Positions 19,880 to 63,722 of a stretch of 64,000 bases of DNA are shown in pieces. Under the pieces are notes generated by a model, which was not told where the DNA came from, did no database searches, and was given only the letters and a program-made list of their open reading frames with translations. The stretch is taken from the NCBI RefSeq assembly GCF_030384885.1, contig NZ_CP128613.1. One strand, 5' to 3'. Numbering within the stretch: position 1 is the stretch's first letter; each line of letters starts with the position of its first letter. A program made the translations under genes and the position numbers. This DNA is from Escherichia coli (GTDB lineage: Bacteria > Pseudomonadota > Gammaproteobacteria > Enterobacterales > Enterobacteriaceae).

Positions 19880-20509
19880 ATGATTAGGGTTGTGCTGGTG
19901 GATGACCATGTGGTGGTGCGCTCTGGCTTCGCACAATTACTCTCTCTGGAAGACGATCTGGAGGTCATTGGTCAGTACAGTTGTGCCGCGCAGGCATGGT
20001 CGGCATTAACTCATAATGACGTTAATGTTGCCGTCATTGATATCGCCATGCCGGACGAAAATGGCCTCAGTCTGCTTAAGCGTCTGCGTGCACAAAAACC
20101 GCAATTCCGCGCCATTATTCTTAGCATTTATGACACGCCAACCTTTGTACAAAGCGCTCTGGATGCTGGTGCCAGCGGCTATTTGACCAAACGCTGTGGG
20201 CCGGAAGAGTTAGTGCAGGCGGTGCGCTCGGTCGGGATGGGCGGGCATTATCTCTGCGCCGATGCAATTCGGGCTTTACGCGGCGGCGAGCAACCCGCCC
20301 AGGCGCTGGAAATTCTCACCCCACGAGAACGTGAAGTGTTTGATTTATTAGTCAAAGGCGACAGTGTAAAAGAGATCGCCTTTAAGCTCGAACTCAGCCA
20401 TAAAACGGTACATGTACATCGCGCCAACGTGCTGGGAAAACTGAACTGTCATAGCACCATTGAGCTGGTGCATTTTGCACTCAATCACCATCTGCTGGCG
20501 GGGCATTAA
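19880..20509 (+). CDS. NarL/FixJ-family response regulator, UhpA-like
   Basis: 209 aa; receiver domain (VVLVDDH, acceptor Asp in VIDIAMPD) plus LuxR-type HTH; close in architecture to UhpA. Confidence 0.85.
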   Translation: MIRVVLVDDHVVVRSGFAQLLSLEDDLEVIGQYSCAAQAWSALTHNDVNVAVIDIAMPDENGLSLLKRLRAQKPQFRAIILSIYDTPTFVQSALDAGASGYLTKRCGPEELVQAVRSVGMGGHYLCADAIRALRGGEQPAQALEILTPREREVFDLLVKGDSVKEIAFKLELSHKTVHVHRANVLGKLNCHSTIELVHFALNHHLLAGH

Positions 20510-22050: not shown

Positions 22051-22122
22051 CCAGGAAAAAGTCTTAGGCATCCCGGATTTTCTCTCATCCTCTTTCACTT
22101 TCATTTTCATATAGTCAGCAAC

Positions 22123-23439
22123 ATGGAGACGACCATGCACGCGCGTTCAGCGAGAGAGATTAATCAATGCTACCGGACATTACGTCCGCGATTGCTGATG
22201 TGCATGATTATTGGCTACGCCGCATTTTATCTGACGCGAAAAAGCGTGAATTACGTCCTTCCGGCGCTGCAAACCGACCTCGGACTGGATAAAGGCGACA
22301 TTGGCCTGCTGGGTTCGCTGTTTTATCTCAGCTACGGATTGTCGAAATTTACCGCCGGACTGTGGCATGACAGCCACGGACAACGCGGTTTTATGGGCAT
22401 CGGCTTGTTCGCCACTGGGCTATTGAACGTGGTGTTTGCCTTTGGCGAATCACTTACGCTTCTGCTTGTGGTCTGGACACTGAACGGATTTTTTCAAGGC
22501 TGGGGGTGGCCACCGTGTGCCCGCTTACTGACCCATTGGTACTCCCGTAATGAACGTGGTTTCTGGTGGGGCTGCTGGAATATGTCGATCAACATTGGCG
22601 GAGCGATTATTCCGCTGATTAGCGCCTTTGCCGCCCACTGGTGGGGCTGGCAGGCCGCGATGCTGACACCGGGGATTATCAGCATGGCATTAGGGATCTG
22701 GTTAACGCTACAGCTTAAAGGCACACCCCAGGAAGAGGGATTACCGACGGTGGGTCAGTGGCGTCACGATCCGCTGGAATTACGTCAGGAACAACAAAGT
22801 CCGCCGATGGGTCTGTGGCAAATGTTGCGCACCACAATGCTGCAAAATCCGATGATCTGGCTGCTGGGTGTCTCTTATGTACTGGTTTATGTGATCCGGA
22901 TTGCGTTAAACGACTGGGGCAATATCTGGCTGACGGAAAGCCACGGCGTCAACCTACTCAGCGCCAACGCCACGGTAATGCTGTTTGAAGTGGGCGGCTT
23001 ACTCGGCGCGTTATTTGCCGGATGGGGTTCGGATTTGCTGTTTAGCGGGCAGCGAGCCCCCATGATTTTGCTGTTTACCCTTGGGTTGATGGTTTCGGTC
23101 GCTGCACTCTGGTTGGCACCGGTTCATCACTATGCCCTTCTGGCTGTGTGCTTTTTTACTGTGGGCTTTTTTGTCTTTGGCCCGCAAATGCTGATTGGAC
23201 TTGCGGCAGTGGAATGTGGACACAAAGCTGCGGCGGGTTCAATCACCGGATTTCTCGGTCTGTTCGCCTATCTCGGTGCGGCGCTGGCAGGCTGGCCGTT
23301 GTCGCTGGTTATCGAACGCTACGGCTGGTCGGGAATGTTCAGTTTACTCTCGGTCGCCGCAGTACTTATGGGTTTACTGCTGATGCCGTTACTGATGGCG
23401 GGCATCACCACCACTCACGCTCGAAGGATAAAACAATGA
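22123..23439 (+). CDS. MFS organophosphate:phosphate-antiporter-family protein, UhpC-like sensor
   Basis: 438 aa; many matches to UhpC from memory (FYLTRKS, GVSKF, CARLLT.WYSR.ERG, NDWGN, FGPQMLIG). Alternative start at 22135 has a better SD. Confidence 0.8.
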   Translation: METTMHARSAREINQCYRTLRPRLLMCMIIGYAAFYLTRKSVNYVLPALQTDLGLDKGDIGLLGSLFYLSYGLSKFTAGLWHDSHGQRGFMGIGLFATGLLNVVFAFGESLTLLLVVWTLNGFFQGWGWPPCARLLTHWYSRNERGFWWGCWNMSINIGGAIIPLISAFAAHWWGWQAAMLTPGIISMALGIWLTLQLKGTPQEEGLPTVGQWRHDPLELRQEQQSPPMGLWQMLRTTMLQNPMIWLLGVSYVLVYVIRIALNDWGNIWLTESHGVNLLSANATVMLFEVGGLLGALFAGWGSDLLFSGQRAPMILLFTLGLMVSVAALWLAPVHHYALLAVCFFTVGFFVFGPQMLIGLAAVECGHKAAAGSITGFLGLFAYLGAALAGWPLSLVIERYGWSGMFSLLSVAAVLMGLLLMPLLMAGITTTHARRIKQ

Positions 23440-24467
23440 AAATGCCCCTTACCTCTACTCTGATTGCTTCTGCCGTTGCGCTGGCAACCTTAACGGGTGC
23501 CGCACAAGCGAAAGGTCGACTGGTGGTCTATTGCAGCGCCACTAATGAAATGTGTGAGACCGAAACCAAAGCGTTTGGCGAGAAATATGATGTGAAAACC
23601 TCGTTTATCCGCAACGGCTCCGGTAGCACCCTGGCAAAAGTCGATGCTGAAAAGAAAAACCCACAGGCTGACGTCTGGTACGGCGGCACCTTAGACCCGC
23701 AGTCGCAGGCCGGCGAGATGGGCCTGTTACAGGCATATAAATCGCCTAACCTTGAACAGATCATGGAAAAATTCCGCGATCCGGCAAAAGTGAAAGGAAA
23801 CCTTTCCTCCGCCGTTTATGTGGGGATCCTCGGGTTTGGCGTCAACACAGAGCGTCTGAAAGAGAAAAACCTGCCTGTGCCGAAGTGCTGGAAAGATCTC
23901 ACCAAACCTGAATATAAAGGCGAAATTCAGATTGCCGATCCACAAAGTTCCGGTACCGCCTACACCGCGCTGGCTACCTTTGCGCAGCTGTGGGGGGAAG
24001 ATCAGGCCTTTGATTATCTAAAACAACTGAACGCCAACGTCTCCCAGTACACCAAATCAGGCATAGCCCCGGCACGTAACGCCGCCCGTGGCGAAACGGC
24101 GATTGGTATTGGCTTCCTGCATGACTACTCGCTGGAAAAAGAACAGGGCGCGCCGCTGGAGTTGATTTCCCCGTGTGAAGGTACGGGCTACGAAATTGGC
24201 GGCGTCAGCATTCTGAAAGGCGCGCGCAACCTCGACAACGCCAAACTGTTTGTGGACTGGGTATTATCAAAAGAAGCTCAGGAACTGGCGTGGAAGAAAG
24301 GGAAGTCTTATCAGATCCTGACCAATACCACCGCCGAAACGTCGCCAAATTCGCTGAAGCTCGACGACCTGAAATTAATCAACTACGACATGGATAAATA
24401 CGGTTCAACTGATGTTCGTAAGGCATTAATTAATAAATGGGTCAGCGAAGTGAAGATGGGTAAATAA
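23436..24467 (+). CDS. afuA: ABC transporter periplasmic substrate-binding protein, AfuA/FbpA family
   Basis: Start MKMPLTSTLIASAVALATLTGAAQA at 23436; the ATG overlaps the stop of the MFS gene (ATGA). Upstream 5' extension of the ORF rejected. Confidence 0.75.
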   Translation: MKMPLTSTLIASAVALATLTGAAQAKGRLVVYCSATNEMCETETKAFGEKYDVKTSFIRNGSGSTLAKVDAEKKNPQADVWYGGTLDPQSQAGEMGLLQAYKSPNLEQIMEKFRDPAKVKGNLSSAVYVGILGFGVNTERLKEKNLPVPKCWKDLTKPEYKGEIQIADPQSSGTAYTALATFAQLWGEDQAFDYLKQLNANVSQYTKSGIAPARNAARGETAIGIGFLHDYSLEKEQGAPLELISPCEGTGYEIGGVSILKGARNLDNAKLFVDWVLSKEAQELAWKKGKSYQILTNTTAETSPNSLKLDDLKLINYDMDKYGSTDVRKALINKWVSEVKMGK

Positions 24468-24478
24468 ACCCGCATTGC

Positions 24479-26614
24479 GTGCACTTGCCGGGTGCAGCAC
24501 AGACGCCTGCCCCGGCCAACCATACCGGAACTGCTATGTCACAGACACTTGCACTCCATCCCGCGAAAAAGCGGGATGCGATTTTCCTTTGGGTTTTGCT
24601 GGGCTGGCTGGCATTTATCCTGTTGCCGAGCTGGAGTCTCGATTATGGTCTGCTGGAGTCCACGAGTGATGAGATCCTCGAGGCGTACAGCTGGTCGCAT
24701 TTTAATATCAGCTGGCTGTGGTATTTACTCCCGAGTTTGCTGCTGGTTCGCCCGTTTAATGAGGCCAAACGCGAGCAGCGTAGCCGTCATTATTTTGATG
24801 CAGGCTGGGCATTGCTTTGTATAGCGTTTATGGTCATCAGTGCCACCATCGTTGGCCGCGGTCTAGGCTACGCCGCCATCGTGCTGTTTATCGAATTAAG
24901 CGCGATAATGACGCTGGCCTTAACCCGCCTCGAATGGCTGGGTGGCGACCGCTTTGTGATCGGCTCGCTGATTGCGATTGTGGCGCTGATTGGCATTTTT
25001 ATCGTCTGGCCGAGCATCGCCATTTTTATCCCGATGTTCACCAACGACGCGGGAGGGTTCGCCCCACTGGCGTTTATGAATGTGCTCTCGCAGGCACATA
25101 TTGTTCAGGTGATCGTCAACTCCATCGTCTTATCGATAGCGGTGGGTATTGGCTGTACTTTCTTCGGTCTGGTGCTGGCGATATATACCACGCGCATCGC
25201 TAAACGCAGCGCAGTAATCGGCCGCATCTTTTCCATTCTGCCAATTGTCACGCCACCGTTTGTGGTCGGCTTAGGCGTTACGCTCATGATGGGGCGCTCC
25301 GGCTACATAACGGAATTTATGGTGGAGTGGTTTGGGCTGACCAACACCAACTGGCTGTATGGTTTTACCGGGATCTGGCTGGCACAGGTCCTGGCATTTA
25401 CGCCAATGGCTTTTATGATCCTCGATGGGGCCATTAAAACCATTCATCCCTCGCTGGAAGAAGCCTCCTACACCCTGCGCGCCAGCCGCTGGCAAACCTT
25501 TAACGGTGTGTTTGTGCCGTTGTTAAAGCCCGCGCTTGCCAATGCCTTTTTAATCGTCGTGGTACAGTCACTGGCTGACTTCAGTAACCCGCTGGTGCTT
25601 GGCGGCAACTTCGACGTACTGGCGACGCAAATTTACTTCTACATTACCGGCTCGCAGCTGGATTATCAGGCCGCCAGCACCCTTGGCGCTTTCCTGCTGC
25701 TGTTCTCGCTACTGGTGTTCTGCGTCCAGTATATGTGGATTGGTAAACGCTCTTACGTCACGGTTTCCGGAAAGTCCTACCGCGGCGATGTCCAGCCACT
25801 ACCGGTCACCCTGGTGTGGAGCGTGGTCGCCATACTTGCGATATGGATTGCCTTTAACGCCCTGCTCTATGGCAGCATTTTCTACGGCAGCTTCACCGTG
25901 AACTGGGGCGTAGACTACACCCTAACGCTGGATAACTTTATCAAGTTATTTGGTCAGGGGATGAGCGACGGCGCATGGCCTTCACTGTTAGATACCTTGC
26001 TCTACGCCGGGATTGCCGCACCCATTACCGCTATTTTTGGCCTGCTCATCGCCTGGGTGGTGGTGCGCCAACAATTCAAAGGCAAAAAGACCATCGAGTT
26101 CACCACCATGTTGTGCTTTGCCGTACCGGGTACAGTGGCGGGTGTCTCGTATATTCTTGCCTTTAATAGCGCCCCAGTCTATCTCACCGGAACGGCAGCA
26201 ATTGTGATTATCTCGATGGTGATGCGCAACGTTCCGGTGGGTATTCGCGCCGGGATTGCAGGTCTGGGGCAGATCGACAAATCGCTGGATGAAGCCTCAC
26301 TTAGCCTGCGTGCGGGTTCCCTGCGAACCATTACGCACATTTTACTGCCGTTGTTACGCCCAGCTATTCTCTCGGCCCTGATTTACAGCTTTGTGCGGGC
26401 TATCACGACGGTCAGCGCCATCGTCTTTCTCGTCACGCCGGACACACGCGTGGCAACCGCCTACATCCTTAACCGCGTAGAAGACGGCGAATATGGCGTA
26501 GCCATCGCCTACGGTTCGATTCTGATCGTGGTGATGCTGGCGATTATTTTCCTCTTTGACTGGCTGATCGGTGAAGCACGTATTTCCCGTTCTAAAGCCA
26601 AAAACCAGGCGTAA
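24479..26614 (+). CDS. afuB: ABC transporter permease with two fused transmembrane domains, AfuB/FbpB family
   Basis: 711 aa maximal ORF, highly hydrophobic with duplicated permease halves; true start may be the internal ATG at 24536. Confidence 0.8.
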
Positions 26615-26625
26615 TGGAGCGCACT

Positions 26626-27672
26626 ATGAGTCAGAAAAATTTTGTGGAACTGCGCAACGTCACTAAACGATTCGGCAGTAATACGGTTATCGACAATATC
26701 AATCTCACCATCCCACAAGGGCAAATGGTGACGCTGCTCGGTCCTTCCGGATGCGGCAAAACCACCATTCTGCGTCTGGTTGCCGGGCTGGAAAAACCGA
26801 GCGAAGGGCAAATTTTTATAGATGGCGAAGATGTCACGCATCGTTCCATTCAGCAACGCGATATCTGCATGGTGTTTCAGTCATACGCTCTGTTCCCACA
26901 TATGTCGCTGGGCGAAAACGTTGGCTATGGGTTGAAAATGCTTGGCGTGTCGCGTAGTGAAGTGAAGCAGCGGGTGAAAGATGCGCTAGCAATGGTGGAT
27001 CTGGAAGGATTCGAAGACCGCTATGTCGACCAGATTTCCGGTGGTCAGCAACAGCGTGTGGCTCTGGCCCGTGCGTTGATCCTTAAGCCTAAAGTGCTGC
27101 TGTTTGATGAGCCGTTAAGTAACCTCGATGCCAACCTGCGTCGCAGCATGCGCGATAAAATCCGCGAGCTGCAAAAGCAATTTAACATCACTTCGCTCTA
27201 TGTGACTCACGATCAAAGTGAAGCTTTCGCGGTGTCCGACACCGTGTTGGTGATGAATAAAGGTCACATCATGCAAATTGGCTCGCCGCAGGATCTCTAT
27301 CGTCAGCCCGCCTCCCGCTTTATGGCAAGTTTTATGGGCGACGCCAACCTGTTCCCGGCGAACTTTAGCGAAGAGTATGTCGATATCTACGGTTATCGCC
27401 TGCCGCGCGCGGCGCATTTCCCGGCGCAAGGTAGCGGCACCGTCGGCGTTCGCCCGGAAGCCATCACCTTAAGCAATCACGGCGAAGAGAGTCAGCGTTG
27501 TGTTATTCGCCATGTCGCCTACATGGGGCCGCAGTACGAAGTGACCGTAGAATGGCATGGTCAGGAGATTTTATTGCAAGTCAACGCCACCCGTTTACAG
27601 CCCGATATTGGTGAACACTATTACCTCGAAATCCATCCTTACGGGATGTTTGTTTTAGCGGATGCGGCATAA
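26626..27672 (+). CDS. afuC: ABC transporter ATP-binding protein, AfuC/FbpC family
   Basis: Start [11 protein letters not shown] with GGAG 7 nt upstream; Walker [10 protein letters not shown]; signature [13 protein letters not shown]; Walker B LLFDEP. Confidence 0.85.
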
Positions 27673-30943: not shown

Positions 30944-31044
30944 CTTTGTTTCCAAACCCGCTGAATAATTTTTAGCGAGTATACCTGTAAACGCCGTAGG
31001 TGTATTGGGGGCAAGTCCCTTTCGCCCCTACCTAATAAGGCGCG

Positions 31045-32256
31045 TCAGGCATCGGCGCACGGCTGCATTCGTGATCTCCGGCTCATCAAAATAAACACTG
31101 CCAGGCCAGCAACAAAAATACCCGGCGCTGAAGCGGCCATTACGCCAACCGTGCCAGTACCTAATGCCAGCATTTTCCCGGCCAGTAACGGACCGCTCAT
31201 AGCCCCCAGACGCCCTACCGCCACGGCGGTTCCCACGCCGGTTGCGCGGATCTGCGAACTGTAAAACAACGGAGCCAATGCATACAAAACGCTTTGCCCA
31301 CCTGTTGCAAACAACCCTGCGACGAATCCCGCCAGCAACATACCGTTAAATGATGACACTGTTCCCAGCGCTAACAGCGAAGCTAACATACCGCTATAAA
31401 TCAGTAGCGACATGATCATTGGACGCAGTTTATCCATCAGTGCGCCCAATATTAACGTCCCGCTTGCCGCCCCCATTTGTAGTGCAAACATCACCCCTGC
31501 CGCCTGCGATGGCTGGAATCCTTGTTCCACTAAAAGCAGCGGTAGCCAGTTGATCAACATGTAGACCACCAGCAAAGTGAAGAAATAACACAACCACAGC
31601 AGCAGCGTTGCGGTTGCCGTGTCGGGCGCAAATAACGCACGCAGCGGCGGCGCAGCCTGTTTTTCGCCAGCGAACACCGCCGACTCCGGCAGCCAGCGCA
31701 TTAACAGTGGCACCAGAATCAACGGCACCACACCACCTACCCAAAACACCGTTTGCCAGGCTAAGTTTGCCCCTGCAAAACCCAGTGTCGCCGCCAGCGC
31801 CGCGCCAATGGGAACCCCGCAATACATCAGGCTCACCGCCGTTCCACGAAAACGTGGCCCCGCCGCTTCAGACGTCAGGGCGATAAGATTCGGCAACGCC
31901 GCCCCCAGCCCGACACCGGTCATCAGCCGCGCAAAGACCAGTGAGGGGAAATCCCAGGCAATAGCCGTTGCCAGCGAGAACAAACCAAACAGCGCAACTG
32001 AACCAATCAAAATGCGTTTACGACCATAACGGTCCGCCAGCATTCCGCCAACCAGCGCGCCGGGTAGCAAACCGAGTATTCCGGCACTGAATATCCAGCC
32101 CATTTGCATTTTATCGAGTGCAAAAGCCTGGGCGATGCCACCCGCCGCAATGCCAGCCGCCTGAAGATCCAGTCCTTCCATCAGAGCGACTAAAAAACAA
32201 AGCCCGATGGTCAGCATCAGGCGGGATGAAGATGATGAAGGGGTACGAGTCGACAT
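31045..32256 (-). CDS. mhpT: 3-(3-hydroxyphenyl)propionate MFS transporter
   Basis: ORF 31045-32325; start MSTRTPSSSSSRLMLTIGLCFLVALMEG at 32256; about 403 aa. Confidence 0.9.
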   Translation of the reverse strand: MSTRTPSSSSSRLMLTIGLCFLVALMEGLDLQAAGIAAGGIAQAFALDKMQMGWIFSAGILGLLPGALVGGMLADRYGRKRILIGSVALFGLFSLATAIAWDFPSLVFARLMTGVGLGAALPNLIALTSEAAGPRFRGTAVSLMYCGVPIGAALAATLGFAGANLAWQTVFWVGGVVPLILVPLLMRWLPESAVFAGEKQAAPPLRALFAPDTATATLLLWLCYFFTLLVVYMLINWLPLLLVEQGFQPSQAAGVMFALQMGAASGTLILGALMDKLRPMIMSLLIYSGMLASLLALGTVSSFNGMLLAGFVAGLFATGGQSVLYALAPLFYSSQIRATGVGTAVAVGRLGAMSGPLLAGKMLALGTGTVGVMAASAPGIFVAGLAVFILMSRRSRMQPCADA

Positions 32257-32334
32257 AAGATGAACCTCGTTGCGAATGCAGGTGAATCGCGGCTGATACA
32301 TTGCCAGCCGCGTAATCAAAACCATTTAATGACT

Positions 32335-32535
32335 GCCTACGGACGAAAGTAGGCCGGATAAGGCGTTTATGCCGCATCCGGCAGTCGTGCACAGATGCCT
32401 GATGCGACGCTGACGCGTCTTATCATGCCTACAAATTCCCGCGCCATCCGTAGGCCGGATAAGGCGTTTATGCCGCATCCGGCAGTCGTGCGCCATTGCC
32501 TGATGCGACGCTGACGCGTCTTATCAGGCCTGGGA
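32335..32535. repeat. REP/BIME cluster, two tandem units
   Basis: Repeated GGCCGGATAAGGCGTTTATGCCGCATCCGGCAGTCGTGC ... GCCTGATGCGACGCTGACGCGTCTTATCA units between mhpT and mhpE. Confidence 0.8.
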
Positions 32536-32564
32536 TGGGTATACAAAATGCACGTTGCCAGCAG

Positions 32565-33580
32565 TCAACATGATTTGTTGTTGCACAGATCCAGCGCCAC
32601 GTCGACGATCATATCCTCCTGGCCGCCGACCATCCGGCGTTTACCCAGCTCAACGAGAATATCCACCGCGCTTAAACCATAACGCGCCGCCGCCGTTTCA
32701 CAGTGACGCAAAAAGCTTGAGTAAACACCAGCGTATCCCAGCGCCAGCGTTTCGCGGTCGACACGTACCGGACGATCCTGCAACGGACGCACCAGGTCGT
32801 CAGCGGCATCCATTAACGCATAGAGATCGGTCCCATGCTGCCAGCCCAGTTTATCCGCGGCGGCAATAAACACTTCCAGCGGTGCGTTACCTGCACCCGC
32901 GCCCATCCCCGCGAGGCTGGCGTCAATGCGGTCACAGCCCTCTTCCACCGCCGCGATAGAGTTCGCCACGCCAAGACTCAAGTTATGGTGAGCATGCATG
33001 CCGGTTTGCGTTTCCGGTTTCAGCACCGCTTTCAGGGCGCGGAAACGGTCACGGATATCGCTCATGTTCATCGCACCGCCAGAATCCACCACATAAATAC
33101 AGGTCGCACCGTAGCCTTCCATCAGCTTTGCCTGTTTTGCGAGATTCTCTGGCGTGGTCATGTGGCTCATCATCAGAAAGCCAACGGTATCCATTCCGAG
33201 TTCGCGGGCATACTGAATATGCTGAGCGGAAACATCAGCTTCGGTGCAGTGCGTAGCCACACGAACCACCCGCGCGCCAGCCTGCCAGGCATTTTTCAGA
33301 TCGTGAATAGTGCCAATTCCTGGCAGCAATAACGTCGCGATTTTGGCGTGCTTCACCACATCCGCCGCTGCTTCAATCCATTCAAGGTCGCTATGCGCAC
33401 CGAAACCATAGTTAAAGCTGGAACCCTGCAAACCATCGCCGTGGGCCACTTCAATCGAATCCACGCGGGCATCATCCAGTGCTTTGGCAATCTGGCGAAC
33501 ATTTTCAAGTGAATACTGATGACGAATGGCGTGCATACCGTCACGCAACGTGACGTCTGAAATATAAAGTTTTTTACCGT

Positions 33581-33584
<4 letters not shown>
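32565..33584 (-). CDS. mhpE: 4-hydroxy-2-oxovalerate aldolase
   Basis: 339 aa; DRE_TIM-type aldolase, [19 protein letters not shown] start; overlaps the mhpF stop. Confidence 0.95.
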
Positions 33585-35346
<1,762 letters not shown>

Positions 35347-36213
35347 TTAAGGACGTGCGAGGAAATTCAGCACCAGTTGATTGAAAGCGTCGGCATGTTC
35401 CCACTGAGCCCAGTGACCACAGTCGCGGAAGATATGCAGCTCAGAACCGGCGATGCCAGAAAGCAGACGCAGCCCTGCATCCATCGGCACAAAACGGTCG
35501 TTACGCCCCCAGACAATCAGAGTTTGCGCTTTGATTTCCGTCAGACGTGGGCCAAAATCCGGGAACTGTTTCGGATTGGCTTCCAGGCTCTTAACGAAGT
35601 TTTCCAGGTGATCGCGGCGCGACAGCATATTATTCAGGCGCGCTTCAAACAGGGCGTCGGTCAAATCGCTGGTATCGAAAACGAAGATATCCATCATCAG
35701 CTTCAGATTTTCGATAGTCGGCTGGCGATAAAGCTGATTCAGTCGCTTAATGCCTTCAGTTGGCATCGGCGTAAACAAACTCATGCCACCTGTACCGCCG
35801 CCCATCAGCACCAGTTTGCCGACGCGCTCCGGCCAGTTAAGGGTGAACGCCACAGAACTGTGGCCGCCCATCGAGTTGCCCAGCAGGTGGATTTTGGCGA
35901 TATCCAGTTGATCCACCACGCTTTTCAGGATGCGCGCATTGAGATCCGATCGCGAACCACTGTTAACGATCGAATCGCTCTTACCCCAACCAGGACAATC
36001 CAGCAGGATCACCCGATAACCAGCTTCTACCAGCGGATCGATATTGCGGCTGAAGTTCGCCCAGCCCGTAGCCCCCGGGCCGGAGCCGTGCAGCAGGACA
36101 ACGGTTTCGTCGCCTTGACCGCAGTCATTAAAATGGATGCGCAGCGTTTTACCCGCTTCTTCTACATTCAGAAAACGGCTGGTGGCGGCTTCGGTTTGTG
36201 GCTGATAACTCAT
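35347..36213 (-). CDS. mhpC: 2-hydroxy-6-ketonona-2,4-dienedioate hydrolase (alpha/beta hydrolase)
   Basis: ORF 35347-36276; start [14 protein letters not shown] at 36213 avoids overlap with mhpB; nucleophile elbow GNSMGG. Confidence 0.9.
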
Positions 36214-36230
36214 CATCTTCTCCTGCATAT

Positions 36231-37175
36231 TCAGTTCTCTGTTCTGGCGCTTAACGAGCCAAATCCGGCAATCCACTCCGGGATCGGGCGGTAATAACGC
36301 CCTTCGCTACGCCAGTTGCCAAACGCAGAAATAGCGGCAAAAGCAGCGACCCAGGTTTTGATTTCATGTGTCGACTTTCCTGCAATGGCGGAAAGCTCTT
36401 CGTTACTGACGGCATCCAGTTCCTGTATGCGTCCCTGCTCCAGCAAAGACATGAACTGGTTATCCCAAATCGGGTTGAGCGGATGCAGAGTTCTCTGATC
36501 CTCAACAAACCTCTCAGCGGCGCTAATCACCCGTTGCTGGCGCATTTCGCGCTCATTGGCGGGCAAATCTTTCCCGCTACCCAACAGACGATCGCGCATA
36601 TGGGCATCCGCTTTCGCCAGTTCTGGCACCGGCGGCTGATGGGAAAGCCCACCGGAACCCAGGAACAGCACGCGCTTATTCAGCGTGCTGGTGAAACGTC
36701 CAATGGCTTCACCCAACATGCGGGTACGCTGAAAACCAGGTAGCGGCGTGGCGACACCGTTGATGAATACAGGCAGGACCGGCACCTTATCCAGCCCACC
36801 GAGCAAGAACTCCAGCGGCTGGGCGAACCCATGATCCACCTGCATACAGTAAGAAACGGCAAGATCAATCCCGCTCTTCATGACGGCATGCGCACAAGCC
36901 TCCGCCAACTCCACAGGCACAGGAAGCTCTCCTGCCGCACTGCCGAAATCGCCAATTGCCGTCGCCCCAACGCCTAAACAGAAGGGTGGCATCACGTCAT
37001 AGAAAAAACCGTTGTAATGATCTGGCGCAAACAGCACCACCAGTTCAGGGGAGAAGGCCGCAATACGCTCGCGGGCACTGGCAATCACGCCATTGACCTC
37101 ATCGAGTATCTCTTGCGCCGGGTCGACATACCCTACCAGCGGCGAGTGGGAAAGACAGTGAAGATAAGCGTGCAT
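36231..37175 (-). CDS. mhpB: 3-(2,3-dihydroxyphenyl)propionate 1,2-dioxygenase (extradiol)
   Basis: 314 aa; start overlaps the mhpA stop. Confidence 0.95.
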
Positions 37176-37176
37176 A

Positions 37177-38841
37177 TCAGGCTACCTTTTCGACAGAAAC
37201 GTCGACATCAGGGCGGTTGAGTGTCATCACGGACGCCAGTTTATTCAGCGTATTACCCAGAGTTTGCGGAATGGCGATGGCGGCAACAAAGCGATCCGGG
37301 CGCATCACCACCAGCGAAGCATTATGTTGTGCGAACCAGCTACGCAGGCGACCTTGCGTATCGCCCACGCGCAGCACGCCGGCGTGGTTATCCTGCGCGG
37401 TATGAATTTGCACATCCGGCACCACCTGAATGAAGCGAGTACCCAGCGCGCGCCATTGCTGGATTTGCTCATCGCTCATCCCCCACAGTGGATTGCATCC
37501 CCAGCCAATTACCGCGAAGTTCGCGCCGATCGCGTTATCGAGCAACGTCACGTCGCCGTTTTCCAGCGTAACTTTCGGCTGAATAAACATCTTGCCGACC
37601 GGAGAGTGTTTCGCTTCGCCTTCACGCACCAGCGCACCGGCGTAATATTGCGGCATCGGCTTGAAGCGCATTTCGAGAAAGTAGCGTTTTACTGGCGGCA
37701 GATAATTCAGCAGCCAGGAAACACCGTCACGTAACGTACCCTGCCAGCGTTTCGGCGGAGCCAGTACGTTGCCCGCCGTCACCGACAGATCAATCATCGC
37801 TTTGGCGTGATCGCGACGTTCTTGTTGATAGGTATCGAGCAGCGCATCGCGAGCTTTCCCCTGGATAACCAACGCCAGTTTCCAGGCGAGGTTAAAGGCG
37901 TCGCGCATACCACTGTTATAGCCCTGCCCCTGCCACACCGGCATGATATGTGCGGCATCGCCCGCCAGCAGTACGCGGTCAATACGAAAACGTTGTGCCA
38001 GTCGCGCGTTGTGGGTGTAGACACGCTGGCGAATCAACTCGACGTTGTCCGGATTAGGCAGCACTTTGCTTAACAGCTTGCGCATATTTTGCGGCTCGCG
38101 GAGCTGTTCTTCGGTTTCGCCCGGCATCACCATAAATTCAAAGCGACGTACCGCATGAGGCAGAGCCGCAGAAACATACGGGCGCACCGGATCGCAACAC
38201 AAATAGATATGCGGCGTACTTAACGGATCGTTGGCGATATCCACCACAATCCACTGATTTGGTGCGGTTTTACCTTCAAACGGCACATTCAGGGTGCGCC
38301 GGACAAAACTTGATCCACCGTCACAGGCTACCAGCCACTGGGCTTTGACCGTTTCCCGCTGCCCTTCTGCCGTTTTCAGATACAAGGTCACTTCGTCATC
38401 TTGCTGGCTGAAGGCCTCCAGCTCGCGGGAAAACAGGCAGCGCACATTCGGAAACCGCGACAACCCTTCCAGCATCACCGCATCGACCTGCGGCTGAATA
38501 AAGGCGTTACGACGCGGCCAGCCAAATTCATCGGTCATTGGCTGAATATCAGCAAAACAGCGGCCTTTTGGGGTAAGAAAACGCATCGCATGCCACGGCG
38601 TAGTGTGCGGCAGAACATTATCGACAAGGTCAACCGACTGCATGGTGCGCAGCGCCTCGTCATCAATTCCAATCGCGCGTGGATAGTCGATCAACTTATC
38701 GAGTTTCTCCACCACCAGCACGTCAATGCCCATCTGGCCGAGATAGTTCGCCATCATCAGCCCGACCGGACCGGCACCAGCGATCGCCACCTGAACGCAA
38801 TGGTTAACAGCAGGCTGGATGTCAGGGTGTTGTATTGCCAT
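37177..38841 (-). CDS. mhpA: 3-(3-hydroxyphenyl)propionate hydroxylase (FAD monooxygenase)
   Basis: 554 aa; N-terminal FAD fold [17 protein letters not shown]. Confidence 0.95.
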
Positions 38842-38982
38842 TTCAGTACCTCACGACTCGGACAAAATGCCGTTGCGCGCACAGTTCAACGCAACTTATT
38901 TTGTTAAAAACATGTAAATGATTTTTTATTGTGCGCTCAGTATAGGAAGGGTGTTTTCGGCTACAATCAAAACATGCCTGAG

Positions 38983-38999
38983 TGTGCACCAAGTGCACA
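38983..38999. promoter_or_regulatory. Perfect 17-bp palindrome in the mhpR/mhpA divergent region, candidate MhpR operator
   Basis: TGTGCACCAAGTGCACA lies between the mhpA start (38841) and the mhpR start (39032). Confidence 0.5.
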
Positions 39000-39031
39000 A
39001 CGTTGTTTTAACTATAGAAATGTCAATTAAT

Positions 39032-39865
39032 ATGCAGAAAGATGTGCAGACGGAATACAAAACCGTGCGCGGCTTAACCCGCGGTCTAATGTTATTAAAT
39101 ATGTTAAATAAACTCGATGGCGGTGCCAGCGTCGGGCTGCTGGCGGAGCTCAGCGGCCTGCATCGCACCACTGTGCGGCGACTGCTGGAAACGCTGCAGG
39201 AAGAGGGATATGTCCGGCGCAGTACCTCCGATGACAGTTTTCGTCTGACCATCAAAGTGCGGCAATTAAGCGAAGGATTTCGTGACGAACAATGGATTTC
39301 TGCACTGGCAGCCCCGCTACTGGGCGATCTGTTGCGCGAAGTGGTATGGCCGACAGATGTGTCCACGCTGGATGTTGATGCAATGGTGGTACGCGAAACC
39401 ACCCACCGTTTCAGCCGTTTATCTTTTCACCGGGCAATGGTCGGACGGCGTTTACCGCTCCTGAAAACCGCCTCGGGACTGACCTGGCTGGCCTTTTGCC
39501 CGGAACAAGAACGCAAGGAGTTAATCGAAATGTTAGCCGCCCGCCCCGGTGATGACTATCAACTGGCACGGGAACCGTTAAAGCTGGAAGCCATTCTGGC
39601 GCGCGCACGCAAAGAGGGTTACGGACAGAACTACCGTGGCTGGGATCAGGAAGAGAAGATCGCCTCCATTGCCGTGCCCCTACGCAGTGAACAACGGGTG
39701 ATTGGCTGTCTGAATCTGGTGTATATGGCAAGCGCAATGACCATCGAACAGGCAGCGGAAAAGCATCTTCCGGCGCTACAACGGGTAGCAAAACAGATCG
39801 AAGAAGGGGTTGAATCGCAGGCTATTCTGGTGGCCGGACGGCGAAGCGGCGTGCATTTACGCTAG
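39032..39865 (+). CDS. mhpR: IclR-family activator of the mhp operon
   Basis: ORF 38918-39865; start MQKDVQTEYKTVRGLTRGLMLLNML at 39032; 277 aa. Confidence 0.9.
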   Translation: MQKDVQTEYKTVRGLTRGLMLLNMLNKLDGGASVGLLAELSGLHRTTVRRLLETLQEEGYVRRSTSDDSFRLTIKVRQLSEGFRDEQWISALAAPLLGDLLREVVWPTDVSTLDVDAMVVRETTHRFSRLSFHRAMVGRRLPLLKTASGLTWLAFCPEQERKELIEMLAARPGDDYQLAREPLKLEAILARARKEGYGQNYRGWDQEEKIASIAVPLRSEQRVIGCLNLVYMASAMTIEQAAEKHLPALQRVAKQIEEGVESQAILVAGRRSGVHLR

Positions 39866-39967
39866 TTGCGCCAATGTGTAATTTGGCCCATTTTCATCGT
39901 TATTCGCCCATTTGCCCACATGCACAGTACGGGCTGCACGCTACGCTAATGCCATCAATACTGTGAT

Positions 39968-40756
39968 GTGGAGCAAATCATGAAAATTACTCAAATTCGT
40001 AATGCCACCCAAATTATCCAATACGCTGGCAAAACATTTCTTATTGACCCGTTACTCGCGCCTAAAGGAAGTTATCCGGGTTTTGCCGGAACGGCACGCG
40101 CAGAAATCCGCAATCCAACGGTAGAATTACCGTGTGATTTAACAACGTTACTCAACGTTGACGCCCTAATAGTGACCCATTTGCATGAAGATCACTGGGA
40201 CGAAACAGCCTCCCGCGTCGTCCCCAAAGATAAACAGATTTATGTGCAAAATGAGCAAGATGCTGAATCACTGCATAAACAAGGATTTACGCATCTTACC
40301 GTACTTGCCGACGAGACTAAATTTGGCGATATTACTCTGCATAAAACGACAGGGCAGCACGGCTCCGATCGCACCTATGCAGACCCGGCTATGGCGAAGC
40401 GTTTAGGCGCAGCCTGCGGCGTTGTTTTCCAGCACCCGACAGAGAAAACGCTCTATCTGGCTGGCGATACCCTCTGGCGTGATGACGTCGAGGCTACAAT
40501 GCTAACTTTCCAACCAGAAGTGGTGGTGTTGAATGCCGGATTTGCGCATGTTCTGGGGCATGGCGCGATAATTATGGGAGCTGAAGATATTCTCAAAACA
40601 CATTTTACCCTGCCAGAAGCGCAAATTGTCGCGACACATATGGAGGCCGTAAACCACTGTTTGCTGACGCGTGATGCGCTCAAGGAATACGCCAGAGATA
40701 ATCAAATTATCGAATTTGTGAACGTACCAGAAGATGGTGAAACGTTGACATTCTAA
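39968..40756 (+). CDS. Metallo-beta-lactamase-fold hydrolase, function unknown
   Basis: 262 aa; THLHEDHWDE metal-binding motif (HxHxDH-like); SD GGAG 8 nt upstream; not present in K-12 as I recall it. Confidence 0.75.
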   Translation: MEQIMKITQIRNATQIIQYAGKTFLIDPLLAPKGSYPGFAGTARAEIRNPTVELPCDLTTLLNVDALIVTHLHEDHWDETASRVVPKDKQIYVQNEQDAESLHKQGFTHLTVLADETKFGDITLHKTTGQHGSDRTYADPAMAKRLGAACGVVFQHPTEKTLYLAGDTLWRDDVEATMLTFQPEVVVLNAGFAHVLGHGAIIMGAEDILKTHFTLPEAQIVATHMEAVNHCLLTRDALKEYARDNQIIEFVNVPEDGETLTF

Positions 40757-40775
40757 TTCGGAGATAAAGAGTGTT

Positions 40776-41729
40776 ATGCGCCCGCTAACTGTTGCCATTA
40801 TCGCCGTTGCCGGTTTTAGTCCTTTTCACCTTTCCGTACCGTTTATCGTGTTTAGCGAAAAAATGGCGGAGAAAAAACGCTTTCATGTAATTATCTGCGC
40901 TGAAAAGCCGGGAAATGTGGACTCTGCCGATGGGTTTTCCGTAACCGCCACCCATGACTATACGGCAGTCATCCAGGCGGATATTGTGATAATTCCTTAC
41001 TGGGGAACAATTACACAAAAACCGCCACAAAAACTGCTGGAAGCCTTAACGACCGCACGAGATAACGGGGCACAGATTGTCGGGCTTTGCCTGGGCACGT
41101 TTGTGCTCGGCTATGCAGGTTTACTGAACAATAAGCGTGCTGCCACGCACTGGGAGTTCGAGCGTGAATTTCAGGCACGTTTTCCACAAACACATCTGGA
41201 TATTAACGCGTTGTATGTAGACGATGATGGCATTATTACCTCTGCCGGTACTGCCGCGGCGCTGGATTGCTGTTTGTATATTGTTCGGCAACATTTTGGC
41301 AGCGACTATGCTAACCATATTGCCCGACGGATGGTCGTACCGCCATATCGCACCGGCGGTCAGGCGCAGTTTATAGAGCAACCGGTGCCGAAAAATACCC
41401 ATGATGAACGCATTAACCTCCTGCTGGATTACCTGCGGCAAAACATTGCGCAACAGCATGATCTCGACTCGCTGGCTCAGCGAGTAATGATGAGTCGCCG
41501 CACACTAACCCGTCATTTTATGAAAGCGACCGGTTCGAGTATCGCCGAATGGCTCATCACTGAACGCTTACGCCGTAGCCAGGAACTGTTGGGATCCAGT
41601 CAGTTGCCCGTTGAGCGGATAGCGGCTGAGGTGGGTTTTCTCTCACCTGTGACCTGGCGTCAGCATTTTAAATCTCACTTCGGCGTCAGCCCCGCAGAAT
41701 GGCGCAAAACCTTTCGTGGTATGGCATGA
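40776..41729 (+). CDS. GlxA-type transcriptional regulator (DJ-1/PfpI-like domain plus AraC HTH)
   Basis: 317 aa; N-terminal class I amidotransferase-like fold, C-terminal AraC HTH; the 3' end contains the lacI promoter. Confidence 0.8.
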   Translation: MRPLTVAIIAVAGFSPFHLSVPFIVFSEKMAEKKRFHVIICAEKPGNVDSADGFSVTATHDYTAVIQADIVIIPYWGTITQKPPQKLLEALTTARDNGAQIVGLCLGTFVLGYAGLLNNKRAATHWEFEREFQARFPQTHLDINALYVDDDGIITSAGTAAALDCCLYIVRQHFGSDYANHIARRMVVPPYRTGGQAQFIEQPVPKNTHDERINLLLDYLRQNIAQQHDLDSLAQRVMMSRRTLTRHFMKATGSSIAEWLITERLRRSQELLGSSQLPVERIAAEVGFLSPVTWRQHFKSHFGVSPAEWRKTFRGMA

Positions 41730-41730
41730 T
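41702..41730 (+). promoter_or_regulatory. lacI promoter (-35 GCGCAA, -10 CATGAT)
   Basis: Near-identical to the classical K-12 PlacI sequence; here it lies inside the last codons of the upstream regulator gene. Confidence 0.7.
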
Positions 41731-41765
41731 AGCGCCCGGAAGAAAGTCAATTCAGGGTGGTGAAT

Positions 41766-42848
41766 GTGAAACCAGTAACGCTATACGATGTCGCGGAGTA
41801 TGCCGGTGTCTCTTATCAGACCGTTTCGCGCGTGGTGAATCAGGCTAGCCACGTTTCAGCGAAAACGCGGGAAAAAGTGGAAGCGGCGATGGCGGAGCTA
41901 AATTACATTCCCAACCGCGTAGCACAACAGTTAGCGGGCAAACAGTCGTTGCTGATTGGCGTTGCCACCTCCAGTCTGGCCCTGCACGCACCGTCGCAAA
42001 TTGTCGCGGCGATTAAATCTCGCGCCGATCAACTGGGTGCCAGCGTGGTGGTGTCGATGGTAGAAAGAAGTGGTGTCGAAGCCTGTAAAGCGGCAGTACA
42101 CAATCTTCTCGCGCAACGCGTAAGTGGTCTGATCATCAACTATCCGCTGGATGACCAGGATGCCATTGCTGTGGAGGCAGCCTGCGCTAATGTTCCGGCG
42201 CTATTTCTTGATGTCTCTGACCAGACTCCCATCAACAGTATTATTTTTTCCCATGAAGACGGTACGCGGCTGGGCGTAGAGCATTTGGTCGCATTGGGTC
42301 ACCAGCAAATCGCGCTGTTAGCGGGCCCATTAAGTTCTGTCTCGGCGCGTCTGCGTCTGGCGGGCTGGCATAAATATCTTAAACACAATCAAATTCAACC
42401 GATAGCGGAACGGGAAGGCGACTGGAGCGCCATGTCCGGTTTTCATCAAACCATGCAGATGCTGAATGAGGGCATCATTCCTACCGCGATGCTGGTTGCC
42501 AACGACCAGATGGCGCTGGGTGCAATGCGCGCCATTACCGAGTTCGGGCTGCGCGTCGGCGCGGATATCTCGGTAGTGGGATACGACGATACCGAAGACA
42601 GCTCGTGTTATATCCCGCCATTAACGACCATCAAACAGGATTTTCGCCTGCTTGGGCAAACCAGCGTGGACCGCTTGCTGCAACTCTCTCAGGGCCAGGC
42701 GGTGAAGGGCAATCAGCTGTTGCCCGTCTCACTGGTGAAACGAAAAACCACCCTGCCACCCAATACGCAAACCGCTTCTCCCCAGGCGTTGGCTGATTCC
42801 TTAATGCAACTGGCGCGACAAATTTCCCGACTGGAAAGCGAGCAGTGA
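41766..42848 (+). CDS. lacI: Lactose operon repressor
   Basis: GTG start (VKPVTLYDVAEYAGVSYQTVSRV...); 360 aa; near-identical to K-12 LacI from memory. Confidence 0.97.
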   Translation: MKPVTLYDVAEYAGVSYQTVSRVVNQASHVSAKTREKVEAAMAELNYIPNRVAQQLAGKQSLLIGVATSSLALHAPSQIVAAIKSRADQLGASVVVSMVERSGVEACKAAVHNLLAQRVSGLIINYPLDDQDAIAVEAACANVPALFLDVSDQTPINSIIFSHEDGTRLGVEHLVALGHQQIALLAGPLSSVSARLRLAGWHKYLKHNQIQPIAEREGDWSAMSGFHQTMQMLNEGIIPTAMLVANDQMALGAMRAITEFGLRVGADISVVGYDDTEDSSCYIPPLTTIKQDFRLLGQTSVDRLLQLSQGQAVKGNQLLPVSLVKRKTTLPPNTQTASPQALADSLMQLARQISRLESEQ

Positions 42849-48129: not shown

Positions 48130-49284
48130 TCATGCCTCTTTGACCCACAGCTGCGGAAAACGTGCTGGTGCAAAACGCAGGGTTAAGATCATCAGCCCAA
48201 CGACGCACAGCGCATGAAACGCCCAGTCCATCAGGTAATTGCCACTGATACTACGCAGCACACCAGAAAACCACGGAGCAAGCCCGGCAATGATAAAACC
48301 GATCCCCTGCATAAACGCCACCAGTTTGCCAGCAATAGCGGGTTGCGCAGAGTGATCGAGCGCCAGCAGCAAACAGAGCGGAAATGCGCCACCCAGACCT
48401 AACCCACACACCATCGCCCAGAAGACCGGCAATTGCAGCGGCAGCCAGATAAAGCCGCAGAAACCCACCAGTTGTAACGCCAGTGCCAGCATTAATAGTT
48501 TGCGCCGATCCTGATGGCGAGCCATAGCAGGCATCAGCAATGCCCCTGCGGCTTGACCAAGCGTCATCAACGCCAGCAAGGAACCGCTGTACTGCGTGCT
48601 GGCACCGATCTCAATATAGAAGGCGGGTAACCAGGCAATCAGACTGGCGTAACCGCCGTTAATCAGACCGAAGTAAACACCCAGCGTCCAGGCGCGGGGA
48701 GTGAAGACTACGCGAACCGGAGTGGTTGTTGTCTTGTGGGAAGATACGACCTCGCGGGAGCTTTGCCACCACCAGGCAAAGAGCGCAATAATGGCAGGCA
48801 GCGCCCACCAGGCGAGAGTCTGGAACCAAATCTCGCTGTGTTGAACTAACCAGGGCGTCAGGGCGGCACCAAGTCCACCGCCGCCCATCAGAGCCGCAGA
48901 CCACAGCCCCATCACCAGTGGCGTGCGCTGCTGAAACCGCTGTTTAATCACCGAAGGCATCACCGCCTGAATGATGCCGATCCCCACTCCACCGAGCAGT
49001 GCGCTGCTAAGCAGCAGCACACTTTGAGGGTAAAGCTCACGCATCAATGCACCGACGGCAATCAGCAACAAACTGATGGCGACGCTGCGACGTTCGCTGA
49101 CATGCTGATGAAGCCAGCTTCCGGCCAGCGCCAGCCCGCCCATGGTGACCACCGGCAGAGCGGTCAACAGGGCAGCCACGCTAAAGCTCATTCCGCTCGC
49201 CTGGCGCAATTGCGGTAGCAGTGGCCCGACGGAGGTGAGCAGTGGTCGCATATTAAGACCAATCAGCACCAGAACCAGCAGCAT
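48130..49284 (-). CDS. cynX: Cyanate transporter (MFS)
   Basis: ORF 48130-49311; start MLLVLVLIGLNMRPLLTSVGPLLP at 49284; 384 aa. Confidence 0.9.
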   Translation of the reverse strand: MLLVLVLIGLNMRPLLTSVGPLLPQLRQASGMSFSVAALLTALPVVTMGGLALAGSWLHQHVSERRSVAISLLLIAVGALMRELYPQSVLLLSSALLGGVGIGIIQAVMPSVIKQRFQQRTPLVMGLWSAALMGGGGLGAALTPWLVQHSEIWFQTLAWWALPAIIALFAWWWQSSREVVSSHKTTTTPVRVVFTPRAWTLGVYFGLINGGYASLIAWLPAFYIEIGASTQYSGSLLALMTLGQAAGALLMPAMARHQDRRKLLMLALALQLVGFCGFIWLPLQLPVFWAMVCGLGLGGAFPLCLLLALDHSAQPAIAGKLVAFMQGIGFIIAGLAPWFSGVLRSISGNYLMDWAFHALCVVGLMILTLRFAPARFPQLWVKEA

Positions 49285-49316
49285 CGTGAACGTCTTTTGA
49301 TGGTCGCGCATGGCTG

Positions 49317-49805
<489 letters not shown>

Positions 49806-49817
49806 TTAAAAATAAGG

Positions 49818-50477
49818 TTACGCTGCGGTCGGCTGGCGTAGCGGTATGGCACAAACGCAAGGATTAGCTGCCAGTGGCACAAACTGGCGGGTTGCGCCGT
49901 CAAAGGCTGCGATACTTCCGCTTTCAATGTCGTAGACCCAGCCGTGCAGAGCGATCCGCCCCTCTTCGAGCGCCAGGCGCACCGATGGATGAGTTTGCAA
50001 ATTAGCCAACTGAGCAATGACGTTTTCACGTACCATCGCCGCAGCTTTTGACGCTAAATCGGAATGCGGGCGCGCCTCATTAACGACGCGGGCTGAATCG
50101 GCATAACGCAGCCAGTGGGAAACGGCAGGCATATGGTCCATGCACTGACAGCTGGCAATGGCGGTCATCGCGCCACAGTTGGAATGACCGCAAATCACAA
50201 TGTCAGATACCCGAAGCGCAGCGACGGCATACTCCACCGAAGCAGAAACGCCACCAGGTTCCGGTCCGTAGGAAGGGACGATATTGCCCGCGTTGCGAAT
50301 CACGAACAGATCGCCAGGTTCGCGTTGCGTCACCAGCTCAGGGACCAGACGGCTGTCGGAGCAGGAGATAAAAAGTGTGCGCGGGCTTTGCTGTGTCGCC
50401 AGCTGTTTAAACAAGGCTTCCCGCTCAGGAAATGCCTCGCGCTGGAATTTAAGGAATCCATCAATAATCTCTTTCAC
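49818..50477 (-). CDS. cynT: Carbonic anhydrase
   Basis: 219 aa; beta-carbonic anhydrase motifs (CSDSR, HSNCGA). Confidence 0.95.
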
Positions 50478-63395: not shown

Positions 63396-63520
63396 GCAGA
63401 TAATTTACTCTCTACGTAATCAACCTGATTTGCCGAATCCCGCTCATCGGCGATGATACCCCCCGTAATGCGTGGTCCTTATTTCCGATAAGTTTACTTG
63501 AGTCTTTAGCTTCCCATTTC

Positions 63521-63550
63521 AGCCCACTCTCCCCTGTGTGGGCTTTTTTC
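63521..63550 (+). terminator. Rho-independent terminator downstream of yahN
   Basis: AGCCCAC-TCTCCCCTGT-GTGGGCT hairpin followed by TTTTTTC. Confidence 0.55.
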
Positions 63551-63641
63551 ATTTGTCTGCTTCAGTGAGTAGCTGGCAATGCTCCATCCACTCTGCAAGG
63601 ATGATAATAAGAGGATCTGATTCAGAAGAGTTTTGAAAAAT

Positions 63642-63722
63642 TGGACCGCCATCGAGGCCTCGAACCCCGTACCATACAACAATCCTGGTTGTCGTCTGCT
63701 CTTCCTGATGAGCTAATGGCGG
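63642..63722 (-). ncRNA. tRNA-like element with atypical anticodon region (possible tRNA pseudogene or tRNA-derived RNA)
   Basis: Minus strand: perfect 7-bp acceptor stem CCGCCAT/ATGGCGG, U8, D-arm GCTC-ATCAGGAA-GAGC, T-arm CGGGG-TTCGAGG-CCTCG, discriminator plus encoded CCA. About 5 nt too long between the D and T arms; anticodon loop lacks U33. Confidence 0.3.

Follow-up and report, generated by a model that had tools for sequence, protein, structure and literature searches.

The 64,000-nucleotide stretch of Escherichia coli DNA analysed here (contig NZ_CP128613.1; the window, throughout) carries two genes between mhpR and lacI, one for a metallo-beta-lactamase (MBL)-fold hydrolase and one for a regulator that joins a DJ-1/PfpI-like domain to an AraC-type DNA-binding domain (Table 1). 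A first-pass annotation made from the sequence alone had recognised this two-gene module, and both an open reading frame (ORF) scan and Pfam agree with it. Annotation was taken from the RefSeq record NZ_CP027579.1 (E. coli 2013C-4282), which is 100% identical to the window. From the mhpR stop to the lacI GTG the distance is 1,900 bp in the window and 76 bp in K-12 MG1655, in keeping with the separation of under 100 bp given for K-12 at the first pass. The length of 262 residues first given to the hydrolase corresponds to a genuine ORF running from a GTG at 39968 to 40756, but the ATG at 39980, which yields 258 residues, is backed by RefSeq and by homologues (PDB entry 6BRM begins MKLTQIRNAT), and the GTG is an unlikely alternative start. 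The regulator gene begins 19 nt past the hydrolase stop with its own GGAG ribosome-binding site and encodes 317 residues ending in ...EWRKTFRGMA; both genes are co-oriented with lacI, which follows after a further 36 nt.

Table 1. Features of the mhpR-lacI interval, in window coordinates.
Feature	Position	Strand	Basis or remark
mhpR, left flank	39032..39865	+	RefSeq annotation; TAG stop 39863-39865 holds the left end of the K-12-type deletion
Segment missing from K-12-type genomes, O-island 19 equivalent	39864..41696	+	1,833 nt
Conserved operator-like motif, 40 bp, TTTGGCCCATTTTCATCGTTATTCGCCCATTTGCCCACAT	39882..39921	+	3' end 58 bp before the hydrolase ATG; weight-matrix scan
z0443 orthologue, 258-aa MBL-fold hydrolase, SaxA family	39980..40756	+	Pfam, PDB homology
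ovrA (z0442) orthologue, 317-aa GlxA-type regulator	40776..41729	+	Pfam, RefSeq name
3' end of ovrA (99 nt) kept in the second deletion allele (yaiL-ovrA'-lacI)	41631..41729	+	
3' end of ovrA (33 nt; codons E308-A317 and TGA) kept in K-12-type genomes	41697..41729	+	
Classical lacI promoter, overlapping the ovrA 3' end	41702..41730	+	Read from sequence
lacI, GTG start 36 nt past the ovrA stop	41766..42848	+	Annotation

O-island 19 and the regulator OvrA

By gene name, protein identity, size and gene content we identify the interval as O-island 19 (OI-19), a locus that has already been described, and its regulator as OvrA. Several recent RefSeq records name the gene 'ovrA: OI-19-encoded virulence regulator OvrA', and 316 of the 317 residues are identical to those of the protein of O157:H7 strain 17B6-2. 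In PMC8565820, O-island 19 of enterohaemorrhagic E. coli (EHEC) O157:H7 EDL933 is given as 1,834 bp holding z0442 (ovrA) and z0443; the segment examined here occupies the same mhpR-lacI site, carries the same two genes and is one nucleotide shorter. OvrA is described in EHEC as a direct activator of the LEE1/ler promoter of the locus of enterocyte effacement (LEE) in PMC8565820 and PMC10877973, and the first-pass view that the pair has no assigned function was thus mistaken as regards the regulator. Unlike EDL933, the window derives from a non-O157 strain, and the published LEE1/ler activation is that of the EHEC OvrA. The primary study of OvrA is reportedly that of Liu et al. (J Infect Dis 2020).

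Pfam places DJ-1_PfpI (PF01965) at residues 6-171 of the regulator and HTH_18 (PF12833) at 233-311, together with a match to HTH_AraC, so that an N-terminal DJ-1/PfpI-like domain precedes a C-terminal AraC double helix-turn-helix. This is the build of the GlxA-type AraC regulators (FtrA, GbdR, CdhR), which likewise combine a DJ-1/PfpI-like domain bearing a nucleophile-elbow cysteine with the double helix-turn-helix, and the ovrA gene, as with these regulators, adjoins its presumed target enzyme gene. The nearest model, the FtrA equivalog (NCBIfam NF006902), scores 324.4 bits against a cutoff of 425, which makes OvrA a relative of FtrA and not its equivalog. All 80 regulators compared have Cys105, at the DJ-1 nucleophile elbow, along with Cys165 and Cys166, a pattern compatible with the sensing of an electrophile.

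The hydrolase belongs to the SaxA family

The hydrolase is a Lactamase_B_2 protein (PF12706) and contains the THLHEDH motif noted at the first pass. In a search of all PDB sequences it matches 6BRM, the "metal-dependent isothiocyanate hydrolase SaxA", over its whole length at E 2.8e-87, with 54% identity and a single one-residue gap in global alignment. It also matches 3RPC, an uncharacterised structural-genomics relative, at E 1.8e-72, and the matches that follow (NAPE-PLD, TM_1162) stand at E ~0.01, the best that is not SaxA-like being ~0.008. Across 68 aligned homologues, 6BRM and 3RPC among them, residues H67, H69, D71, H72, H127, D163 and H220 never vary, and many residues beyond the metal ligands are likewise invariant across the family, 6BRM included. 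It is because of the full-length match to 6BRM, the invariant metal ligands and the wide separation from other PDB matches that we place z0443 in the SaxA family. The databases name the homologues of E. coli, Citrobacter and Enterobacter just "MBL fold metallo-hydrolase", and some sources 'UlaG-like'.

SaxA enzymes convert isothiocyanates to an amine and carbonyl sulfide (PMC7303113), and saxA has been reported as "widely distributed among Enterobacterales", in five clusters that were all catalytically active (PMC7036374). The E. coli protein shares with SaxA (6BRM, and the sax genes of P. syringae and Pectobacterium) homology over the full length and the same HxHxDH/H/D/H ligands, and would be cytoplasmic like the crystallised form. 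It differs in that its gene is chromosomal, beside lac and in a host of the animal gut, whereas SaxA is known from plant pathogens and insect-gut isolates, and in that its isothiocyanate activity is a prediction. An isothiocyanate is most likely the substrate of the z0443 product; the lactones, thioesters or small aromatics proposed at the first pass are not supported, SaxA being the sole close characterised relative. Expression of Z0443 is 10-fold RpoS-dependent in EDL933 (PMC2907692).

Two further observations touch on this chemistry. The SaxA-like proteins of Burkholderiales, Marinobacter and Halomonas (L037, L042, L045, L054, L056 and other divergent loci) bear an N-terminal hydrophobic, signal-peptide-like extension, which suggests that, in contrast to the cytoplasmic E. 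coli protein, these isothiocyanate hydrolases are exported. Some 8 kb downstream of the module, the window carries the cyn operon (cynS and cynX, 48130-49787; cynT, 49818-50477). Its cynT gene encodes a carbonic anhydrase, a type of enzyme known to hydrolyse the carbonyl sulfide that SaxA releases; the closeness of cynT to the SaxA-like module may be a coincidence.

The regulator and a 40-bp motif are linked to the hydrolase across Proteobacteria

A scan for the regulator protein in one genome per species returned 80 loci, in about 65 of which a SaxA-like gene is the immediate neighbour of the regulator. In Citrobacter, Kluyvera, Erwinia, Aeromonas, Vibrio and Geomonas the hydrolase gene comes first and the regulator gene follows in tandem, and in Burkholderiales, Marinobacter and Halomonas the two form a divergent pair. 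A 40-bp weight matrix (consensus nTTGGCCCAATCnnATCGnTAnTnGnCCnTnnGGCCACTn) was derived from ten tandem loci and run over whole loci of ~13 kb on both strands; 81 loci were scored, ~70 of them outside the training set of the matrix. In nearly all 81 the best match is sited either ~100 bp before the start of the hydrolase gene or, in divergent pairs, between the two genes, and the one clear miss has its second-best match at the expected place. Top scores range from ~17 to 48 and second-best scores are at most 15 in all but one locus, and the motif is always found on the side of the target gene and oriented towards it. The 64 kb of the window hold a single strong match (45.8, against 14.3 for the next best), the one upstream of z0443 listed in Table 1, and a TAnnnT hexamer follows at 39942-39947, ~20 nt past the motif end. 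This position would suit an AraC-type activator site overlapping the -35 element, and we regard the motif as a putative binding site of the GlxA/AraC regulator. Since regulator and hydrolase remain linked across proteobacterial classes that mostly lack LEE, the local pairing would seem to be the ancestral role of the regulator.

The sax genes of plant pathogens include a regulator of their own, SaxC, which Fan et al. in 2011 are said to have described and which is reportedly of the same family as OvrA, although this could not be confirmed. SaxC is described merely as a 'transcriptional regulator' in PMC12903958, and a further SaxA preprint mentions neither saxB, saxC nor AraC, so that SaxC as a GlxA-type regulator was not confirmed there either.

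In some loci of Pseudomonas, Dechloromonas and related organisms the same regulator family and the 40-bp motif face another gene, which is not SaxA-like; the loci without an MBL-fold gene are L046, L050, L052, L053, L058, L065, L069, L073 and L079-L082. In L046, the only one of these examined, the gene (5256-5957, minus strand) encodes an isochorismatase-family cysteine hydrolase with weak RutB/nicotinamidase matches; it is a candidate saxB, which could not be confirmed. A paralogous module is also present on the E. coli IncY plasmid pTET-GZEC065 (L090, NZ_CP048027.1, 4001-6192; 128 E. coli plasmid records), where a SaxA-like MBL protein 63% identical to the chromosomal one stands with an OvrA-family regulator (58% over 315 aa) and an 'ester cyclase'. 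Upstream of this plasmid module the 40-bp motif is weaker and still recognisable.

Two deletion alleles among E. coli

A survey of 5,426 complete E. coli genomes, in which the full module was detected by megablast of its interior, returned a K-12-type allele in 4,459 (82%), the full module in 435 (8%), an allele joining yaiL to the end of ovrA (yaiL-ovrA') in 487 (9%), and another arrangement or no match in about 45 (about 1%). The full module is always chromosomal and single-copy, and its carriers include O157:H7, O55:H7, O145 and O157:H16.

The K-12 junction reads ...CATTTACGT-TGA-CACCATC-GAATGGCGCAAAACCTTTCGCGGTATGGCATGA-TAGCGCCCGG..., and its 33 nt from GAATGG on, GAATGGCGCAAAACCTTTCGCGGTATGGCATGA, are the last ten codons and stop of the O157 allele of ovrA, from which the window differs by one synonymous change (CGC/CGT). 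At the left end, K-12 homology stops at about 39861-39863. In place of window 39864-41696 K-12 has 9 nt, GACACCATC, and the mhpR stop has become TGA instead of TAG. Three K-12-type junctions, those of K-12 and two further strains, were read at single-base resolution and share these 9 nt, save for a one-base variant, GAAACCATC, in L088, and the common filler points to a single deletion event. No source for the filler could be identified: it has no copy in or near the module (window searched, up to two mismatches) and aligns to neither flank. In the K-12 locus (L001) its site is at about 2573-2587 on the minus strand, equivalent to window 39864-39872.

The second allele lacks window 31009-41630, that is, 10,622 bp holding mhpT, mhpEFDCBA, mhpR, z0443 and most of ovrA, and joins yaiL to a 99-nt 3' fragment of ovrA, followed by lacI; PGAP annotates the fragment as a GlxA-family pseudogene without an N-terminus. 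The right ends of the K-12-type and yaiL-ovrA' deletions lie 5 bp and 71 bp, respectively, upstream of the -35 element of the lacI promoter. Alignment to K-12 and to other E. coli, as the first pass had proposed, thus mapped both pairs of end points, and the proposal that K-12 is a deletion remnant of the fuller form seen in the window holds up well in the light of the conserved C-terminal codons, the second truncation and the Citrobacter synteny described below. Intact copies of both genes in K-12, or an unrelated sequence upstream of the promoter, had been named beforehand as findings that would speak against it; what K-12 holds instead is the 33-nt end of ovrA.

The lacI promoter lies inside ovrA

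The -35 hexamer GCGCAA (41702-41707) sits within codons TGG-CGC-AAA (W309-R310-K311), and, after a 17-bp spacer, the -10 hexamer CATGAT (41725-41730) overlaps the TGA stop at 41727-41729, some 30 nt ahead of the lacI GTG. We take these hexamers to be those of the classical promoter, PlacI, which therefore occupies the last 28 nt of ovrA, just as the first-pass annotation had proposed. K-12 has identical -35 and -10 hexamers at identical spacing; the difference is that in the window the promoter lies in an intact coding sequence. In Citrobacter sedlakii, GCGAAA ... CATGAT is found at the same place, with CATGAT likewise lying across the stop codon of the regulator.

The lacIq up-mutation changes GCGCAA to GTGCAA. 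In the window this change would replace the invariant Arg310 (CGC) by Cys (TGC), and, since the -35 element is made of that codon and its neighbours, coding constraint may have helped to keep PlacI weak. That both deletions halt short of PlacI suggests selection against the loss of Lac repression.

No terminator-like site was found between ovrA and lacI in 41729-41766, where the RNA fold z-score of -0.64 is not significant. Given co-oriented genes, short gaps and no terminator found, read-through from the z0443-ovrA operon into lacI is plausible. In most Citrobacter species the regulator gene is parted from lacI by an opposite-strand ORF of ~200 aa (L004, 6961-7569, minus strand), methyltransferase-like on inspection of its sequence, which puts the embedded promoter out of reach of lacI; the ORF is absent in C. 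sedlakii (L016) and in C. youngae ATCC 29220 (L014).

Discussion

The O-island 19/OvrA locus and the SaxA family are each already known, and the observations assembled here do not overturn current understanding. What they do allow is a different account of the locus. We consider it likely that O-island 19 is an ancestral operon of a SaxA-type hydrolase and its cognate regulator, of which K-12 has lost all but the 33 nt that bear PlacI. On this account a two-gene operon would have been resident in an ancestral mhpR-lacI neighbourhood common to Escherichia and Citrobacter. Its z0443 product, acting in the cytoplasm, would convert isothiocyanates, electrophiles formed when dietary glucosinolates break down, into amines and carbonyl sulfide, and OvrA, as the cognate regulator, would bind the 40-bp site upstream of z0443 overlapping the -35 element and turn the operon on, presumably upon exposure to isothiocyanates. 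Most E. coli, K-12 among them, would descend from a single 1,833-bp deletion that begins at the mhpR stop codon and ends 5 bp short of the -35, and a second lineage would have lost 10.6 kb, from yaiL into ovrA. PlacI was spared by both, presumably since its loss would abolish Lac repression.

The searchable literature on O-island 19 differs from this account in that it treats the locus as an 'island' that sets O157 apart from K-12, and it is silent on the K-12 remnant, PlacI within ovrA and the kinship to SaxA. In the searchable literature, which did not extend to the primary OvrA paper, we found no account of O-island 19 as ancestral, of the K-12 remnant or of the origin of PlacI, nor of a conserved operator and an ancestral local role for OvrA-type regulators.

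Horizontal acquisition, with the module landing, in EHEC and related lineages, in an mhpR-lacI junction of the K-12 kind, is what an 'O island' is usually taken to mean, and it would agree with the absence of the module from 82% of complete E. coli, from the K-12 reference and from the representatives of other Escherichia species, as well as with the travel of paralogous MBL and regulator modules on E. coli IncY plasmids. Such an insertion would, however, require the prior K-12 DNA to have supplied the last ten conserved codons and the stop in frame. The C-terminal motif ...SP.EWR[KR]TF.. recurs in homologues ranging from Citrobacter to Aeromonas, Geomonas and Marinobacter whose surroundings lack lac genes, and because it is conserved family-wide away from lac, an insertion could not have recruited K-12 DNA for the EWRKTFRG codons. 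Nor does it sit well with a second allele that keeps a longer, 99-nt piece of the same gene, or with Citrobacter, in which the gene order and the promoter-over-stop arrangement are the same. The order MBL-regulator-lacI-lacZ is present in 13 of 14 Citrobacter loci (L005 is without a detectable lacI), and C. sedlakii has exactly mhpR, hydrolase, regulator, 36 bp, lacI and lacZ. Between Citrobacter and E. coli, protein identities are similar across the whole block (hydrolase 77-80%, regulator 76-80%, LacI 81-85%, LacZ ~80%, MhpR ~90%). In the annotation the module is bordered by neither mobility genes nor repeats, and module divergence is like that of flanking core genes: between the window and O157 it is 2.1-2.5% in nucleotides for the module and 4.3-5.5% for mhpR and lacI. 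With 1 of 317 and 4 of 258 residues changed despite that divergence, both module genes are, to judge from this comparison, under strong purifying selection. These points support the view of O-island 19 as an ancestral segment lost by K-12, and they effectively refute the insertion, to which we assign a very slight residual probability.

With regard to function, the hydrolase could act on something other than an isothiocyanate (a lactone, a thioester or another electrophile), and OvrA could be chiefly a virulence regulator unconnected with z0443. MBL-fold enzymes are promiscuous, the homologues are annotated no further than by fold or as 'UlaG-like', the OvrA site described at LEE1 does not match the conserved motif, and the regulator family adjoins an isochorismatase-type hydrolase in some Pseudomonas and Dechloromonas loci. 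We nonetheless hold this possibility to be quite improbable, given that SaxA is the sole close characterised relative, with the next PDB matches at E ~0.01, that neither the metal ligands nor a good many further residues vary within a family that includes 6BRM, that activity was reported in all five enterobacterial SaxA clusters (PMC7036374), and that the regulator-hydrolase link spans classes of Proteobacteria, most without LEE. A separate question is how lacI is transcribed in strains that carry O-island 19. It could be served mostly by read-through from z0443-ovrA, PlacI being a minor promoter that became the sole one only after the deletions; z0443, ovrA and lacI all run in one direction, 19 and 36 nt apart, with no terminator found, PlacI is established as a weak promoter, and Z0443 is strongly expressed in stationary phase. 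We find this doubtful, in that two independent deletions both spared the PlacI region, which argues for a prior need of it, and in that C. sedlakii, too, has its -10 hexamer across the stop codon.

Several points weigh against the ancestral isothiocyanate operon as we propose it. The regulator gene was found in no representative genome of the other Escherichia species in the one-per-species scan, so that the ancestral state within the genus rests on Citrobacter and the remnants. The 9-nt filler cannot be derived from either flank, so that the K-12-type event was not a clean microhomology deletion. The OvrA footprint published for LEE1, GACATTTAATGATAATG (PMC8565820), is unlike the conserved 40-bp motif; it was not found upstream of z0443, and its sole match in the window is a chance one, with three mismatches, inside lacZ. 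The same article describes no obvious virulence phenotype for a z0443 deletion. An identity of 54% leaves the substrate range unfixed. Last, no assignment of z0443 to SaxA was found in the searchable literature, from which the primary OvrA paper and the 2018 SaxA paper were both out of reach; within that collection, EHEC reviews and the other literature naming z0442/z0443 call z0443 unknown.

A more far-reaching idea, which we offer as a speculation with rather poor odds, is that OvrA senses isothiocyanates or other electrophiles through Cys105 and so couples detoxification by Z0443/SaxA, LEE activation in EHEC and, by read-through, the dosage of LacI. If true, O-island 19 would be a sensory module of ancestral origin, since discarded by most E. 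coli, K-12 among them.

The proposed function of z0443, if true, ties a published virulence regulator to plant-derived antimicrobials, of which allyl isothiocyanate (mustard) and the sulforaphane of brassicas are ingested by cattle and humans, and it could explain strain differences in isothiocyanate tolerance. The textbook lacI promoter, for its part, appears to be recycled coding sequence of a neighbouring gene, and the K-12 mhpR-lacI junction a derived deletion; the 33-nt end of ovrA survives as the lacI promoter, also in the many cloning vectors with a K-12 lacI cassette. Synteny of the lac region with Citrobacter argues for long residence and not for recent import. The term 'O island' denotes what K-12 lacks; it is not a statement of acquisition.

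Other features of the window

Between tauA and frmR, window 19880-27672 (7.8 kb) holds genes for a response regulator, a MASE1 sensor kinase, a UhpC-like receptor and a three-gene ABC transporter. The cluster appears to be another segment that differs from K-12, and it is probably O-island 20, since PMC2907692 places a 'putative response regulator', Z0463, in OI-20. At 63412-63652, beside yahN, lies a small frameshifted hypothetical gene that RefSeq annotates as a pseudogene.

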